DNA of 64,000 nucleotides from a virus. Under the pieces are notes generated by a model. The model was given only the letters and a program-made list of their open reading frames with translations. It was not told where the DNA came from and did not search any database. The translations under genes and the position numbers were made by a program. Of the stretch, positions 1 to 5,760 are shown one piece after another. The DNA lies in the UHGV virus genome UHGV-0248979. One strand, 5' to 3'. Every line of letters begins with the position of its first letter. Within the stretch, counting starts at the first letter, position 1.

Positions 1-165
1 ATAGACGCGGACGGGGAAGAAAACCAACTTAAAAATGTACCAATAACTACAAAAGCAGGGTGTAACCAACTAGCCTCCTCAATAGGTGTAGAAGCTTACG
101 AGTACATTCGTCGTGTAGTGATGGCAGAGCGTAATAGAGGGGCGGAAAATGAGTCAAGAAAATAG
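1..165 (+). CDS. 3' end of an upstream ORF truncated by the window edge
   Basis: Frame 1 is open from position 1 to a TAG stop at 163-165, ending 17 nt into the next gene; no start within the window. Confidence 0.3.
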   Translation: MDADGEENQLKNVPITTKAGCNQLASSIGVEAYEYIRRVVMAERNRGAENESRK

Positions 166-1471
166 TTATCCTAAACAACTGACTTATCAAATTGTTACAA
201 ATTTATCGTGTAACTTGGACTGTGAGTATTGTTACGAACGTAAGTATCCCCGTAATAACAAAGCGGCGGATATTGTTGATTTTCTACACGCTTGTTTTGA
301 ACGAGATAAAGATCTGACAAACATCGAGGTCGTTATCGATATCATCGGTGGTGAGCCGTTTATTCAGCCTAAACTATTAAAGGCGGCATTTGAAACCGCA
401 GAAGAGTTATGCGAAAAACATAATCGGCCGTTTATGTTTAGCATCTCTACTAACGGAACGTTGTTAGATAGACCTTTGAATAGAGAAATTATTGAACGTT
501 GGAAAGACAGGCTGTCTATCGGCGTGTCTATTGATGGATTGCCCGAATCGCACGATAAGTACCGGATTTTTACAACAACTCGTGAAGGATCTTACGAGGC
601 CGCTGTGCGGGGCTATAACTACTTAAAAGAAGTCGGTATTGCAGAACTTGGTGTAAAAGCGACCTTTACGTTGGAAACGTTACCGTTCTATGCTGCTGGA
701 ATGAAATCATTAATTGATATTACTGGCGGCGGAACTATTTCTGGCAACGTAACCTTCGAAGACATTATGCCACGGAGCATGGCTACTTCAATCGCATTGC
801 AGATGATGGACGTGGTAGATTATTGGGTTGAGAAGGGCTTACACACCAACCCACGTAACACTTTGTCGCACATCATTCCAGACGGGTTAGATTTTGATAC
901 TATCTGGGAACCAAACTGGCGTGATCAGTTATTGTATAACGATACTGTACGTTTGAATCCAGAACGTTTACGCCCGTTCTGCGGTACGTTAACACACATG
1001 ACCTGCTTAGGATTTGATCGTAAGATCTTCGGTTGTAACCGTTTCATGTCAACCGTAACATCACGTTCTGCCGTATTTGAATTAGTTGGGCGGGAATTCG
1101 TTAGCTTAGATGACGGGAAATTGCTGGAAGAGATTCAGACGCAATACACCAACTATCCTGAAACCTGTTTAGGTTGTCCAATGAAGCACGCTTGTGGTAG
1201 TTGTGCGGCTGCATCTTACGAGAATGGAGAAGGGACGCTAGAAGATCGCAAAGCTTATCACGCTGAACGCCGTCAATGCGGCTGGACAACTGCAAAGTTG
1301 ATGGTTGCGGAATATTGGAAACAGAAAATGGGCACGACGTCAGTGAAAGATTTTCATGACAATAGCATGTGTTATTGCCCTCGTTGCGTACGTGAACGTA
1401 CCCAGAAAGAAAAACAATTGAGAGAAACCAAAGATGAAGCCAATTCTGATCCACAATATTACGAAGCGTAA
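149..1471 (+). CDS. radical SAM enzyme with C-terminal SPASM/twitch-like cysteine cluster
   Basis: CxxxCxxC motif (CNLDCEYC) near the N-terminus; Cys-rich C-terminal segment (CLGCPMKHACGSCAA...CGW...CYCPRC); 440 aa. Confidence 0.8.
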   Translation: MSQENSYPKQLTYQIVTNLSCNLDCEYCYERKYPRNNKAADIVDFLHACFERDKDLTNIEVVIDIIGGEPFIQPKLLKAAFETAEELCEKHNRPFMFSISTNGTLLDRPLNREIIERWKDRLSIGVSIDGLPESHDKYRIFTTTREGSYEAAVRGYNYLKEVGIAELGVKATFTLETLPFYAAGMKSLIDITGGGTISGNVTFEDIMPRSMATSIALQMMDVVDYWVEKGLHTNPRNTLSHIIPDGLDFDTIWEPNWRDQLLYNDTVRLNPERLRPFCGTLTHMTCLGFDRKIFGCNRFMSTVTSRSAVFELVGREFVSLDDGKLLEEIQTQYTNYPETCLGCPMKHACGSCAAASYENGEGTLEDRKAYHAERRQCGWTTAKLMVAEYWKQKMGTTSVKDFHDNSMCYCPRCVRERTQKEKQLRETKDEANSDPQYYEA

Positions 1472-2006
1472 ATTCCGTTTTCTGGAAAAATTTTTAGAAA
1501 CTACAAAATTGTTTGGTTGTTATGTGCAAATTAATGGTGAAGACTTCACTGACGATGTTAAACGATTATTAATTCGCCACGGAGTAACTGTAGTTATCCC
1601 AATGTATTGCACAGAACTCACCGATCTTTCAGTTACAGAAATTGAGAAACGGAATCCTGGGTTTGAACAACGTGTACTAGATTTTCCACGACATAAAATC
1701 GTGCTATTACGCAGGGCCTTGCAAGAACCAAGCGTCGAATCTATAACAGCATTAGGATTATCCTTTCCGGGCATCACGATTTACGCAATGCGGAATCCAG
1801 ATTCTACTATCGATGGATTTTACGAGGAACGTGAAGCGTTCCATGATTTAATTTATCCTGAACTTACCGATGAAGAACGACAAGGATTACACATCGATTG
1901 GGATTCTGGTTTTGATAACAAATTTCGCCAAATCGATTTTGAATTGTTAATTGAGCTAGGTTTAGTTAAAGGAGAAGATGAATGTCTGTTATTGACGAAG
2001 GCTTAA
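1434..2006 (+). CDS. hypothetical protein, co-oriented with the radical SAM gene
   Basis: 190-aa ORF overlapping the upstream gene end by about 38 nt; no recognisable motif. Confidence 0.5.
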   Translation: MKPILIHNITKRKFRFLEKFLETTKLFGCYVQINGEDFTDDVKRLLIRHGVTVVIPMYCTELTDLSVTEIEKRNPGFEQRVLDFPRHKIVLLRRALQEPSVESITALGLSFPGITIYAMRNPDSTIDGFYEEREAFHDLIYPELTDEERQGLHIDWDSGFDNKFRQIDFELLIELGLVKGEDECLLLTKA

Positions 2007-2656
2007 CGAAAGAGGAAATACGTCAACGTTATTTCTCACGAGGGCTTCCAATCGATCGCCACGGTAATTACATGGAACGAATTGGCAACGAGGATCGTGG
2101 TCGTGCGGGTTTTTGTGCGCTTCTACACTACAAATTAATCGATGGGTTGGAAGATAAGGCCGCAATCGAACAGATGCGTAGTTACGATATGTCGGAGATT
2201 GAGGCTAATTTCACTCTACAGAAAGCGAAAGAATTTATCGCTGATGTTCTTGAGATTGATTTAGAAGAAATACGAAACAACGTTCGATCAACTGCACGTT
2301 ATATCTATCAAGATGTTCAGAAAATCATGATAGAGATGGAACGTCTTTATGAGGAACAGCGTTATGCGCCCATTAAGTTAAATGGGTGTTATTTCCAAGC
2401 AGACGACGCATCGCGACAGATGTTAAGTCAGTATATTCAGTCTGAAACCGCCCCGGAATATTGGTTGGATACGTCGAATGCACGAATAGAACCGTTCACG
2501 TTGGAACAATGCAAAGAACTGATGGCAGCGATTGTGAAACGTGATCAGAAATTGCATGGGCAGAAAACCGAGCAGAAAAAAGAGCTTCGGCTTTTAGCCG
2601 AGCGGCGTGATTATGATACCATCCGAGCGTACGCTTTGGAAATGGGGATAAAATAA
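1982..2656 (+). CDS. hypothetical protein, last gene of the plus-strand module
   Basis: 224-aa ORF overlapping the previous gene; followed directly by a hairpin terminator. Confidence 0.55.
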   Translation: MSVIDEGLTKEEIRQRYFSRGLPIDRHGNYMERIGNEDRGRAGFCALLHYKLIDGLEDKAAIEQMRSYDMSEIEANFTLQKAKEFIADVLEIDLEEIRNNVRSTARYIYQDVQKIMIEMERLYEEQRYAPIKLNGCYFQADDASRQMLSQYIQSETAPEYWLDTSNARIEPFTLEQCKELMAAIVKRDQKLHGQKTEQKKELRLLAERRDYDTIRAYALEMGIK

Positions 2657-2658
2657 AA

Positions 2659-2706
2659 AAGTACCTACCTCCGTAAAGGAGGTAGGTAAACTTATTATTT
2701 TTTGTT
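2659..2706 (+). terminator. rho-independent terminator
   Basis: Perfect hairpin tacctacctcc-gtaaa-ggaggtaggta followed by a T-run, preceded by an A-run (could act in both directions). Confidence 0.7.
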
Positions 2707-2725: not shown

Positions 2726-3256
2726 TTAAGCAGTAAAGCCGTCAAGTTCACCGTCGGTGGTGGCCAGGTCAATACGATTATCAACAACTTTCGGCGTAAT
2801 TACGAAAGTTGCCATTACACCCGGTTTATAACGGAGGTTCTTTTCAGTAACGGTACAAGTTACCGTACGCAGAGTGACGCTATCGTGTTCGTCTTTCTGG
2901 TCTTCGGTGGTGTACTCAACGTCACCAGGTGCGATAGAGTCGTCAGGTTTTACTTTATTGATGTAAAACTGTAATCGGTCGCGTAGTTCGTTTTCTCCAG
3001 TCCAGAGAGCCAAATCGTCCGTTACCTCAATGCGTCCGACAACGCCAGGTTCCAGACGATCGTAATGCAGTTCGATTGCGCCTTTAAAATTTTCAGACTC
3101 TGTACGTGCGGTCATGGTAACTTTGGTATTTTTATCGCCCTTTTCAAGAGCGACAGGTTGACCAAAAGTTACCTCTTTATCAGTGACCTGATGCGGTAGC
3201 TCTGTGTTAGCAGCATTATAAAGCGCAACTAACATCATCTGGTTAGTAGCTGCCAT
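2726..3256 (-). CDS. paralog family member P1 (putative tail-associated protein); C-terminus ELDGFTA
   Basis: 176 aa; N-terminal pattern shared with five other ORFs in the window; C-terminus shared with 3324..3890. Confidence 0.6.
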   Translation of the reverse strand: MAATNQMMLVALYNAANTELPHQVTDKEVTFGQPVALEKGDKNTKVTMTARTESENFKGAIELHYDRLEPGVVGRIEVTDDLALWTGENELRDRLQFYINKVKPDDSIAPGDVEYTTEDQKDEHDSVTLRTVTCTVTEKNLRYKPGVMATFVITPKVVDNRIDLATTDGELDGFTA

Positions 3257-3307
3257 TATCTTAAATCCTTAAAATGAAAGTTAAAGAAATATCGGGGGAG
3301 GTTACCA

Positions 3308-3316
3308 CCCCCCCCC
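3308..3316 (-). repeat. homopolymeric G9 tract (C9 on the plus strand), intergenic between P2 and P1
   Basis: Nine consecutive C read directly at 3308-3316. Confidence 0.9.
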
Positions 3317-3323
3317 GAATCAA

Positions 3324-3890
3324 TTACTCTTTAGGCGCTGGTGCGGTGAAGCCATCCAGTTCACCTTCCAAACCGCTCAGTGCTACTTTCTCAATAGCCG
3401 GAGGAGTAACTTTATACGTTGCAACAGTACCTGGCAGGAACTTCAGGTGTCCAGTCACAACAGTTACTACGTAAATGGTTTTGCCTTCTTCTTCACGGGA
3501 AATAGTTTGCAGGTCGTTTTCACCGAACTCGTCATCGGTGTACCCCTTCTCAACCATGGCTGCGTTAACTTTTGCCAGGATTTTCGTTGGTGAATCGAAA
3601 TCGGTAGTAGGTGCAGTTACTTCAACTTCACCAACGATGTCGCAGGAAAGACGAGTATAGTGGAATTCTTTCTCGCCTTTGAAGTTCTGGCTTTCTGCCT
3701 TGGCGGTCAGAGTAATTTTAGTGTTGCGGCCAGCTTCTCCGGTGAAGTCAGCGACAGCACTAAAGTCAACATCAGCTACGGTGAGAGCGGAGCTCAGAGA
3801 GCTGTTTTTAGTGTTAATAAGTTCGATAAGCTGCTGTTGAAAAGTTTTAGCCATTGTTTTTACCTCGTAAGTAGTATGGGTGGTTTGCAT
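3324..3890 (-). CDS. paralog family member P2 (putative tail-associated protein)
   Basis: 188 aa; tandem paralog of P1, same ELDGFTA C-terminal motif plus a PAPKE extension. Confidence 0.6.
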   Translation of the reverse strand: MQTTHTTYEVKTMAKTFQQQLIELINTKNSSLSSALTVADVDFSAVADFTGEAGRNTKITLTAKAESQNFKGEKEFHYTRLSCDIVGEVEVTAPTTDFDSPTKILAKVNAAMVEKGYTDDEFGENDLQTISREEEGKTIYVVTVVTGHLKFLPGTVATYKVTPPAIEKVALSGLEGELDGFTAPAPKE

Positions 3891-3985
3891 AGTATTGTTC
3901 GGATTATAGAAGTGGTGTTAATAGTTATGACAGGCGGCAGAAGGGTTGCTTGTAAAATTAATTAACTTTAACTTTTTTATAAAAG

Positions 3986-4592: not shown

Positions 4593-5108
4593 TTAAATCT
4601 CGACTAAGGCGCTCCAATCGATTGGTTTTTGCTTAACAACTTTCACAGTACCACGATTTGGTGACCAGAAAGTAATGTTAGGCTGGTTACGAACGTCAAT
4701 GTGCAACCAACTGATGTCACATTCAATAAAGTGAATGAACGGAAACTCGTCAGGGTTAGCAGCGATATAGTCGTGAACCTGTTTTACGGTGCTATCCAAC
4801 AACGTTGCATCAATGGCGTTACCGAATTTGTGTTGACTTCCTGAATCGGCGTAAAGCTGCAACGCACGTTGTTTATAACTACCACCCTTAGGCTTTTCTT
4901 GATTAATAAAGAAATCTAAGGTTCTTAGTCCGCGCTGTTGTGCGGCAGTTGAGTTAATCACCATTCTGCCGAAACGATTACGAATCTGTTGTAGGGAGAT
5001 CATTAACAACGGATTCATAAACCGAATTGCGGAATCGCCGTATTTGGCAATATAGGACTGTGGTACTAACTCTCTGAGTTTAAAGTTACTCGGATTTGGA
5101 TGAAACAT
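4593..5108 (-). CDS. peptidase M15-like cell-wall hydrolase (DUF882/Peptidase_M15_3-like)
   Basis: Motif SQHKFGNAIDA (SxHxxGxAxD) and a later His, typical of zinc D,D-carboxypeptidase-like M15 domains. Confidence 0.6.
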   Translation of the reverse strand: MFHPNPSNFKLRELVPQSYIAKYGDSAIRFMNPLLMISLQQIRNRFGRMVINSTAAQQRGLRTLDFFINQEKPKGGSYKQRALQLYADSGSQHKFGNAIDATLLDSTVKQVHDYIAANPDEFPFIHFIECDISWLHIDVRNQPNITFWSPNRGTVKVVKQKPIDWSALVEI

Positions 5109-5760
5109 CTTCCCTCCCAGACAGAAAAGCCCGTTTGATGTTCAGGTATTTGACATTAACGGGACAATCTGTGGTGATATCAATACGTTCGTGGTCAGGG
5201 ATTGCAGGTTCCTTAAACTCGCGAACGAATAAATAGTTTCGATTGTAATCTAACGTACGAAACGCGTTAGTGCTGTAGGATGGCTTTGCATTAGGATCTA
5301 CGTAGGCATCCCAGCCGAATTCAACAACGGCCTTATAAAATGTTTGGCAGATATAAGGCGAGATTTCCAACGACTGCATAATACGCAGGAAAGTTAAGTC
5401 AGAGAACTCTTTATCGATGAAACGCGAAACGTTACCACCCGGTGTCATGGGATAGCTACGCTCCGTGTTGCATTTTTGATAGAGTAAGTCGTGAATACAG
5501 GCCGCAGGTGCCCACGGTCCGTCAGGATGGAAAATTCCCTGGAGGTGATCAGGAATTGACGCTAAATCGGTAACGAACCCTTTCGGTGCTGTTAACCACA
5601 GTTGCGTGTCAGGCAATACACCCGTTAAATAAACCGCACGGTCTAAGTGTACGTGGTCGTGATAAATCTCGCGTAACGTAAACGGATAATGGTAATCCTC
5701 CGTTAATACAAACCACTTATTGTCTAAACGTTTATATTGAAGCTTCTCCATTACCCACAC
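5086..5760 (-). CDS. DUF1353-like phage protein
   Basis: Motif TDLASIP...HD..Y resembling the DUF1353 signature; 224 aa. Confidence 0.5.
   Translation of the reverse strand: MWVMEKLQYKRLDNKWFVLTEDYHYPFTLREIYHDHVHLDRAVYLTGVLPDTQLWLTAPKGFVTDLASIPDHLQGIFHPDGPWAPAACIHDLLYQKCNTERSYPMTPGGNVSRFIDKEFSDLTFLRIMQSLEISPYICQTFYKAVVEFGWDAYVDPNAKPSYSTNAFRTLDYNRNYLFVREFKEPAIPDHERIDITTDCPVNVKYLNIKRAFLSGREDVSSKSE

Follow-up and report, generated by a model that had tools for sequence, protein, structure and literature searches.

The pairing of a protein that has cysteine at every fourth position with a SPASM-type radical S-adenosylmethionine (rSAM) maturase is already known, as the bioinformatic family pair TIGR04114/TIGR04115; this CXXX-repeat system has been defined bioinformatically and, to our knowledge, has not been characterized biochemically. 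Other systems relevant for comparison are CteB, the SCIFF/ranthipeptide thioether synthase, PapB, a ranthipeptide maturase acting on a repeated Cys-x3 (CX3D) motif, QhpD, a SPASM rSAM enzyme that puts several intramolecular Cys thioethers into QhpC, a subunit kept in a larger assembly and not secreted as a peptide, and the His-Xaa-Ser system, in which a large SPASM enzyme (HxsB) and a small rSAM enzyme (HxsC) lie beside a short-period repeat substrate. The DNA considered here is a stretch of 64,000 nucleotides from the viral genome UHGV-0248979 (the window), which at positions 149..1471 encodes a 440-residue rSAM enzyme, rSAM1. On balance, window positions 1-2688 appear to make up the 3' half of a module for tail-fibre maturation, in which a system akin to those making RiPPs (peptides that are ribosomally synthesized and then modified post-translationally) cross-links the Cys-repeat tips of fibre proteins, probably by thioethers.

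The rSAM1 protein is ~82% identical to gp163 of phage SPN3US, and the window is from an SPN3US-like jumbo phage (Seoulvirus and relatives), at the DNA level only ~75% identical to known phages. The gene is present in sixty-odd sequenced jumbo phages of Salmonella, Erwinia, Escherichia and Cronobacter, where its annotation, if there is one, reads 'putative radical SAM superfamily protein 1' and nothing more. The family is small, with 46 clusters (at 50% identity) found at E <= 1e-30 among 1.84 billion representatives. An identical protein is encoded on a 225.7-kb metagenome scaffold (L006, position 3137 of which corresponds to window position 1), and 3.1 kb of sequence beyond the upstream edge of the window was taken from this source scaffold.

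That rSAM1 is a radical SAM enzyme with a Cys-rich C-terminal region of SPASM type, as an earlier note on this DNA had claimed from its letters, is confirmed. The Pfam Radical_SAM model (PF04055) matches at 55.8 bits against a cut-off of 29.5, which places the protein in the superfamily, and the CxxxCxxC cluster cysteines, C21, C25 and C28, lie within CNLDCEYC at residues 21-28 and are invariant in an alignment of 25 homologues of 30-100% identity. A GGEP motif follows at residues 67-70; its G67, G68 and E69 are invariant, and P70, which the window protein has, falls in a column that is not. No auxiliary-cluster cysteine is lost in the alignment: C278, C296, C340, C343, C349, C352 and C377 are all invariant, which is the pattern of a SPASM domain with two auxiliary clusters; a further cysteine of the region, C286, is not among the invariant positions. 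The seven-cysteine SPASM arrangement is thus present with some deviations in spacing, these being C-x9-G-x7-C and CX2CX5CX2C, compared with the canonical CX9-15GX4C ... CX2CX5CX3C ... C. A separate, clade-specific C-x-C-x-x-C lies at residues 408-413 (window 1370-1387) in a C-terminal extension modelled with low confidence; it is kept in most jumbo-phage sequences, is absent from most other homologues and may be an additional metal site.

The top NCBIfam matches of rSAM1 are all peptide maturases. The best, at 118.7 bits (E 3.8e-34), is TIGR04115, the CXXX-repeat target family, the alignment of which is nearly full length (rSAM1 residues 10-371 of 440 to positions 3-345 of a 359-position model). 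It is followed by PapB (NF047865, 115.4 bits against a cut-off of 340), and there are further matches to the SCIFF maturase/CteB (TIGR03974, 59.6 bits against 425), QhpD (TIGR03906, E 8e-16, 57.7 bits against 453), anaerobic sulfatase maturase (anSME; TIGR03942, 54.7 bits against 349) and HxsB (E 6e-22, far under its cut-off). Since the cut-off of every named family is missed, rSAM1 is a member of none of them. When a profile made from the rSAM1 alignment was used in a hidden Markov model search of the PDB, CteB (5wgg) was matched at E 5e-35 and anSME at E 5e-16, the alignment running through the SPASM domains of both. The AlphaFold2 (AF2) model of rSAM1 has a pLDDT of 86 and, in a Foldseek comparison, again returned CteB first (E 4e-15, TM 0.64), then ChlB, anSME, SuiB and TigE; by profile and by fold, the closest solved relative is thus the thioether-forming CteB. 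A reading of rSAM1 as a SPASM-type peptide or protein maturase is borne out by these results, and NrdG is not in the 25 best of the 66 family matches listed. The protein begins directly at the radical SAM core, with no N-terminal RiPP recognition element (RRE) domain.

The supposition that a substrate gene may lie just outside the window is supported. Three tandem + strand open reading frames (ORFs) of 130, 134 and 68 residues are found in the 1.1 kb that separate the gp167 and gp165 genes of SPN3US and pEa_SNUABM_29, each with a normal N-terminal part followed by cysteine at every fourth, sometimes third, residue, e.g. TCSWTCSNGCSHGCSSCSGSCSASC. The repeats (consensus C-[ST]-G-[SGT]) span 13-79 residues with 4-21 cysteines, and stop 3-12 residues from the C terminus. 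On the source scaffold two such CXXX genes, encoding 132 residues (L006 386..784) and 68 residues (L006 788..994), are located 2.2-2.8 kb before the window, and all the relatives compared (SPN3US, JN03, pEa29, pEa6, L093-95 and L173) carry two or three. The 132-residue source protein scores 22.3 bits, above the cut-off of 20, with TIGR04114, the 'Cys-rich repeat' rSAM target family, so that rSAM1 adjoins a Cys-every-fourth target of the kind that accompanies TIGR04115 enzymes. Because TIGR04114 is the partner of TIGR04115, the enzyme and substrate families independently indicate the same system.

The Cys frame of these genes is the real coding frame and is under purifying selection. In a codon-position comparison of five or six phages, differences at the third position outnumber those at the other two both for CXXX genes of type A (757 vs 305 and 191) and for those of type B (1236 vs 485 and 420), synonymous codon changes exceeding non-synonymous ones. 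Of the Cys columns, 20/22 (type A) and 20/20 (type B) are invariant, and within the repeats cysteines are the only invariant side chains. It is very likely, in our judgement, that the Cys repeats are the substrate of the module. The GenBank records of these regions contain errors, with CXXX genes missing or mis-annotated at 3094-3486, 3497-3901 and 3917-4123 of L003 (SPN3US, JN641803), and likewise at 3130-3522 and 3532-3933 of L005 (pEa_SNUABM_29). By codon-position statistics and homology, SPN3US_0166, an Ala/Val-rich ORF laid over the second CXXX gene, is in the wrong frame, and pEaSNUABM29_00267 and pEaSNUABM29_00268 are on the wrong (opposite) strand.

Co-occurrence across phage genomes, one of the checks the earlier note had proposed, points the same way. 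When all fetched loci were scanned for ORFs with at least six cysteines spaced two or three residues apart, such an ORF was found on the same strand, usually less than 2 kb away, at 75 of the 80 viral-contig loci with an rSAM1 relative (22-93% identity) and at 12 of the 15 best bacterial-genome loci; by contrast, only two of 65 loci with generic rSAM/SPASM genes had one. Fisher's exact test of 75/80 vs 2/65 gives p = 2e-32, a value that overstates independence because the loci are related to one another. A contig scan of genomes returned mostly generic rSAM/SPASM genes, because the back-translated pattern used was itself generic, and served mainly as a negative control. More distant rSAM/SPASM genes of 22-28% identity, here called group B, occur in IMG/VR contigs (L100-L170) and in Margulisiibacteriota/Termititenax (L013-L016); the proteins encoded next to them, of up to 488-672 residues, have another conserved N-terminal domain (ALKAKVKAEMQRR), after which C-x-x-x repeats continue for hundreds of residues.

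The link to tail fibres comes from homologues of 30-40% identity. In prophages and phage contigs of P2-like, lambda-like and other types these are encoded within tail-fibre modules, and at their loci a fibre protein terminates in the Cys repeat. One such protein, of 384 residues and from a Campylobacter pinnipediorum prophage of the P2-like type, has a strong PF12571 tail-collar-fibre domain (138.8 bits), and its gene is flanked by those for baseplate J/I and for the sheath. At a Deferribacter abyssi locus and in metagenomic contig L012 the repeat ends fibre-like proteins of 302 and 258 residues, encoded downstream of GpJ-type central fibre genes. Further cases are provided by L097-L099 and L175-L177, including a 568-residue fibre with the PF27846 domain (tSAM_targ_Cxxx_rpt), and one of these loci also has T7-tail-like and tail-assembly-chaperone genes. 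A junction motif immediately before the repeat, N-A-x-x-L-x-G-x-x-x-x-Y-Y-x-C-x-x-C-S-W-x-C, is common to the long fibres and to the short SPN3US-type proteins. In the SPN3US-like phages, moreover, the CXXX genes follow those for gp168 and gp167, virion baseplate/fibre proteins, gp168 of SPN3US having been described as a baseplate/fibre protein (PMC5105663). The SPN3US virion proteome includes gp160 and gp167-171 and none of gp161-166 (PMC5694885); the lack of gp161-165 fits with enzymes or chaperones that act on virion parts. The CXXX proteins themselves were undetectable in that work because they were not in the search database. It is likely that the products of the module end up in the virion, as part of its fibres.

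A different fate for the same substrates has to be weighed here, namely that the locus is a classical RiPP cluster, where a leader is cut off after a conserved C-G-G site and the core is released as a free bacteriocin, signal or host-takeover factor. A leader-like N terminus, a repetitive core and an rSAM/SPASM maturase are the RiPP paradigm, the best-matching families are RiPP maturases, the SPN3US-type substrates are small (68-134 residues) and for the group B relatives a place in tail modules is not obvious. However, the module contains neither a protease nor an exporter, it lies between virion genes and ends with a gene of the tail-fibre-chaperone type, and other lineages have the same repeats and junction motif fused to tail-fibre proteins of 250-570 residues; release as a free peptide is accordingly considered improbable.

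The features of the window that belong to the module are as follows.

1..165, + strand: 3' end of rSAM2 (last 54 codons plus stop; SPN3US gp164 homologue), a frame-1 match to the C terminus of JN03/SPN3US 'radical SAM superfamily protein 2'

149..1471, + strand: rSAM1, 440-residue radical SAM/SPASM maturase (SPN3US gp163 homologue), from Pfam, NCBIfam, alignment and AF2 model

1434..2006, + strand: gp162-like protein, 190 residues, from ORF and predicted fold

1982..2656, + strand: gp161-like protein, 224 residues, with a C-terminal DUF4376 domain (residues 124-206), from Pfam PF14301

2662..2688, no strand assigned: bidirectional hairpin resembling an intrinsic terminator, with an 11-bp stem and a 5-nt loop, from sequence

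The three complete ORFs are exactly where they had been placed, with overlaps of 38 nt between rSAM1 and the gp162-like gene and of 25 nt between the gp162-like and gp161-like genes, both found equally in SPN3US; rSAM2 and rSAM1 overlap by 17 nt. The two genes after rSAM1 are translationally coupled. The hairpin at 2662..2688, flanked on both sides by T-runs, separates convergent genes, closing the + strand operon as well as the DUF7941 gene that runs towards it on the - strand. What had been described as a three-gene module is in its extent larger, the three genes being the 3' half of a module of about ten. Besides a gp165-like partner, the whole has two or three genes for substrates and two or three for radical SAM enzymes. 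Contig L173, with an rSAM1 96% identical to that of the window and from the same sub-clade, has the full module of that sub-clade in the order gp168, gp167, CXXX-A, rSAM2', CXXX-B, CXXX-C, gp165-like, rSAM2, rSAM1, gp162, gp161.

The ORF cut by the window edge is indeed truncated; it encodes not a substrate, but the C terminus of a second radical SAM enzyme, rSAM2, in frame 1 of window 1..165. The complete gene (L006 2363..3301, 312 residues) has the motif CNLDCSFC and a Pfam Radical_SAM match of 48.4 bits. Its product has no SPASM domain; two invariant cysteines and a nearly invariant one near its C terminus form a twitch-like site in the alignment, the last invariant cysteine lying inside the window fragment. 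Matches of rSAM2 to MoaA, QueE and NrdG are weak (NrdG2 29.5 bits against a cut-off of 131), and the HxsC match (E 1.6e-10) is far under the cut-off. These matches, and the fact that phages often carry NrdG or QueE, are what might suggest a housekeeping or nucleic-acid role (NrdG-type activase, QueE/7-deazaguanine, DNA hypermodification), with the Cys-repeat ORFs irrelevant. NrdG, QueE, MoaA and viperin roles were rejected on scores far under cut-off and on the full-length match of rSAM1, with its complete SPASM domain, to SPASM peptide maturases; neither NrdD nor queuosine genes occur near the module, and in phages of widely differing kinds rSAM1 relatives strictly co-occur with Cys repeats. 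Such a role is effectively refuted, and the modified-DNA pathway partner that had been suspected outside the window was not found.

A third radical SAM gene, rSAM2', a paralogue of rSAM2, is present at L173 6576-7487 between CXXX-A and CXXX-B, and partially at L006 1-327. The C-terminal parts of rSAM2' and rSAM2 have an identical 28-residue stretch, MPKPLSPDHVMNFIYGYFRIQENIERLN, which may be the reason why scaffold L006 ends inside rSAM2'. Four short Logan contigs (L007-L009 and L174) start inside rSAM2 downstream of MPKPLSPDHVMNFIYGYFRIQENIERLN, a break which that stretch does not explain. The possibility that the rSAM2-like fragment at the end of L006 is an assembly artefact was rejected, a real third rSAM gene being present in L173; the fragment is there because rSAM2' sits between CXXX-A and CXXX-B.

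Besides the SPN3US-like phages, at least eight other lineages have a small rSAM enzyme and a gp165-like protein alongside rSAM1. The gp165-like family is weakly conserved (216-299 residues) and by sequence has no match in Pfam, NCBIfam or the PDB; in the P2-like prophage its gene takes the place of the fibre chaperone gene. In three 50%-identity clusters (P0110, P0149 and P0137) the small enzyme, with the motif CNFKCSFC or CNLDCSFC, is joined to the rSAM1-type SPASM enzyme in single proteins of ~630-670 residues, which argues for joint action of the two.

The two genes after rSAM1 had been called overlapping and unknown; the overlap is confirmed, while 'unknown' is no longer apt for the gp161-like gene, given its DUF4376 domain. 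Neither gp161 nor gp162 has a solved relative by sequence. The gp162-like protein is limited to SPN3US-like phages; its predicted fold is an alpha/beta partial TIM barrel most like radical SAM cores, without the cluster motif. The idea that it is a degenerate radical SAM paralogue was discarded, the likeness being at fold level only, with hhalign probabilities of 13.5% and 0.7%; it may be an accessory or scaffold protein. The gp161-like protein matches DUF4376 (PF14301) over residues 124-206 at 36.6 bits against a cut-off of 25, i.e. as a C-terminal domain, and also matches phrog_8169 and, weakly, the tail-fibre family phrog_1141; a DUF4376 gene is also found behind the rSAM pair in the unrelated contig L177. 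For Alteromonas phages V22 and A5 there is experimental support for DUF4376 proteins as chaperones of tail fibres, and the Campylobacter CJIE1 H-fibre requires one (PMC7289586, PMC10579305, PMC7882524). By this homology the gp161-like protein is a candidate tail-fibre assembly chaperone.

Other genes near the module include two paralogous DUF7941 genes at window 2726-3256 (-) and 3324-3890 (-), the SPN3US counterpart of which, gp160, is reported to be a very abundant virion protein with >300 copies (PMC5694885). A DUF1353 protein is encoded at window 5086-5760 (-), ~3 kb from the rSAM genes in SPN3US-like phages, and in the Campylobacter P2-like prophage a DUF1353 gene (L011 8068-8433) lies directly behind the rSAM pair; this protein may be a further associated tail component. 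On the source scaffold an extra ORF of 96 residues (L006 1165-1455), absent from L173 and SPN3US, lies between CXXX-C and the gp165-like gene, and CXXX-C has at its 3' end (L006 970-990) 10 G in a row, which are either a possible slippage site or a sequencing artefact.

In the mechanism proposed, rSAM1 would act in concert with the twitch-like rSAM2 and, in the sub-clade of the window, rSAM2'; its radical SAM cluster would abstract a hydrogen atom from the repeat region, while binding and oxidation of the substrate would fall to the two auxiliary clusters. The gp165-like protein might present the substrate, a role proposed because rSAM1 has no RRE domain. The products would be intramolecular or inter-chain cross-links, most likely thioethers from Cys sulfur to carbon if the analogy with CteB, PapB and QhpD applies, turning a flexible Cys/Ser/Gly tail into a rigid tip resistant to proteases and reduction, and gp161 would chaperone assembly of the fibre.

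The specific chemistry is the most tentative part of this proposal, thioether formation being read by analogy and put at a little short of an even chance. The same substrates may be subject to other reactions, including formation of formylglycine from Cys/Ser in the manner of anSME, epimerization or C-C/C-O cross-linking, or may mainly bind metal with few residues modified. SPASM enzymes of similar sequence catalyse diverse reactions, two or three different rSAM enzymes in one module suggest more than one reaction, and in fold CteB is only slightly nearer to rSAM1 than are anSME, SuiB, TigE and the cyclophane synthase ChlB. By profile, however, CteB is clearly the best match, and cysteine, the only side chain kept throughout the repeats, provides the donor atom for thioethers. 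In addition, the anSME motif C/S-x-P/A-x-R is absent from the neighbouring repeat proteins, and apart from one Trp they lack the aromatic residues needed for cyclophanes. Other chemistry on these substrates is considered unlikely. Asp/Glu is almost absent from the repeats, which are built of C, S, G and T and so do not show the Cys-x3-Asp/Glu pattern of PapB substrates.

Several observations weigh against the interpretation of the locus as a thioether-forming fibre maturation module. On the side of the enzyme, the Pfam SPASM model gives no match to rSAM1 at E <= 1, with only Radical_SAM and Fer4_12 being returned, the last SPASM spacing is CX2C instead of CX3C, the TIGR04115 cut-off of 350 bits is missed and every other named-family cut-off is likewise far above the rSAM1 score. 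The chemistry is inferred only from the nearest characterized relatives, at ~19% identity, and the proposed presenter, the gp165-like protein, has no RRE or other known fold recognizable by sequence. On the side of the substrate, the SPN3US-type proteins are short, with no Pfam tail-fibre domain detected in them, and their assignment to fibres draws on the shared junction motif and on synteny; the context of the group B genes, as judged with PHROGs, is phage-like and not clearly tail-related.

More broadly, and with some hesitation, it is suggested that rSAM-cross-linked 'cysteine-ladder' fibre tips may be a previously unrecognized class of virion modification, made by a four-part cassette present in jumbo chimalliviruses, P2-like myoviruses and lambda-like siphoviruses. 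Its parts would be a fibre that ends in a C-[ST]-G-x repeat, two rSAM enzymes, one small and one of SPASM type, and a gp165-like partner. A literature search outside the scope of which most subscription journals fell turned up no paper that connects radical SAM enzymes with tail fibres or with these SPN3US genes, and a repeat on tail-fibre C termini, a second rSAM enzyme, a gp165-like partner or a DUF4376 chaperone was not found described. The proposal would account for the two genes that in SPN3US-like jumbo phages have since 2011 carried the label 'putative radical SAM superfamily' with no function assigned; it also reveals three conserved genes mis-annotated in GenBank, and places the orphan 'CXXX-repeat' rSAM systems in a definite biological context, phage fibres. 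If true, covalently reinforced fibre ends would bring RiPP chemistry into structural virology, as a new viral route to stabilize or diversify host-recognition organelles by radical chemistry, and peptide engineering would gain a source of enzymes that put many cross-links into a simple, repetitive scaffold. The hypothesis is directly testable in the SPN3US genetic system.

Compared with the systems considered at the outset, the module has both familiar and unusual elements. CteB resembles rSAM1 by profile and fold through the whole SPASM domain, but the two are only ~19% identical, the N-terminal RRE of CteB is missing in rSAM1, such that the alignment starts from CteB residue 104, and the last SPASM spacing of rSAM1 differs in being CX2C. 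PapB likewise works on a repeated Cys-x3 motif, whereas the phage repeats lack its Asp/Glu acceptors. The substrate, organism and context of QhpD are unrelated to those of rSAM1, the score being far under the cut-off. The His-Xaa-Ser system is like the phage module in having a large/small rSAM pair beside its repeat; however, the type of repeat differs, there is no phage or tail context, and both scores are far under cut-off. The DUF4376 chaperones (V22 gp27, A5 gp9 and that of the CJIE1 H-fibre) have, like the gp161-like protein, a C-terminal DUF4376 domain and are encoded downstream of fibre-like genes; in the present module, by contrast, enzyme genes separate the chaperone-type gene from the fibre-like genes.

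The likeness to the TIGR04114/TIGR04115 system extends to a SPASM rSAM enzyme without an N-terminal RRE that adjoins proteins with cysteine at every fourth position. By the NCBI criterion, however, rSAM1 is not a member (118.7 vs 350 bits), and the phage module adds a second (or third) rSAM enzyme of the small kind, a gp165-like partner and a DUF4376 chaperone. Moreover, the TIGR04114 target is a stand-alone peptide, whereas the target repeat of the phages is the C terminus of tail-fibre or tail-fibre-like proteins.

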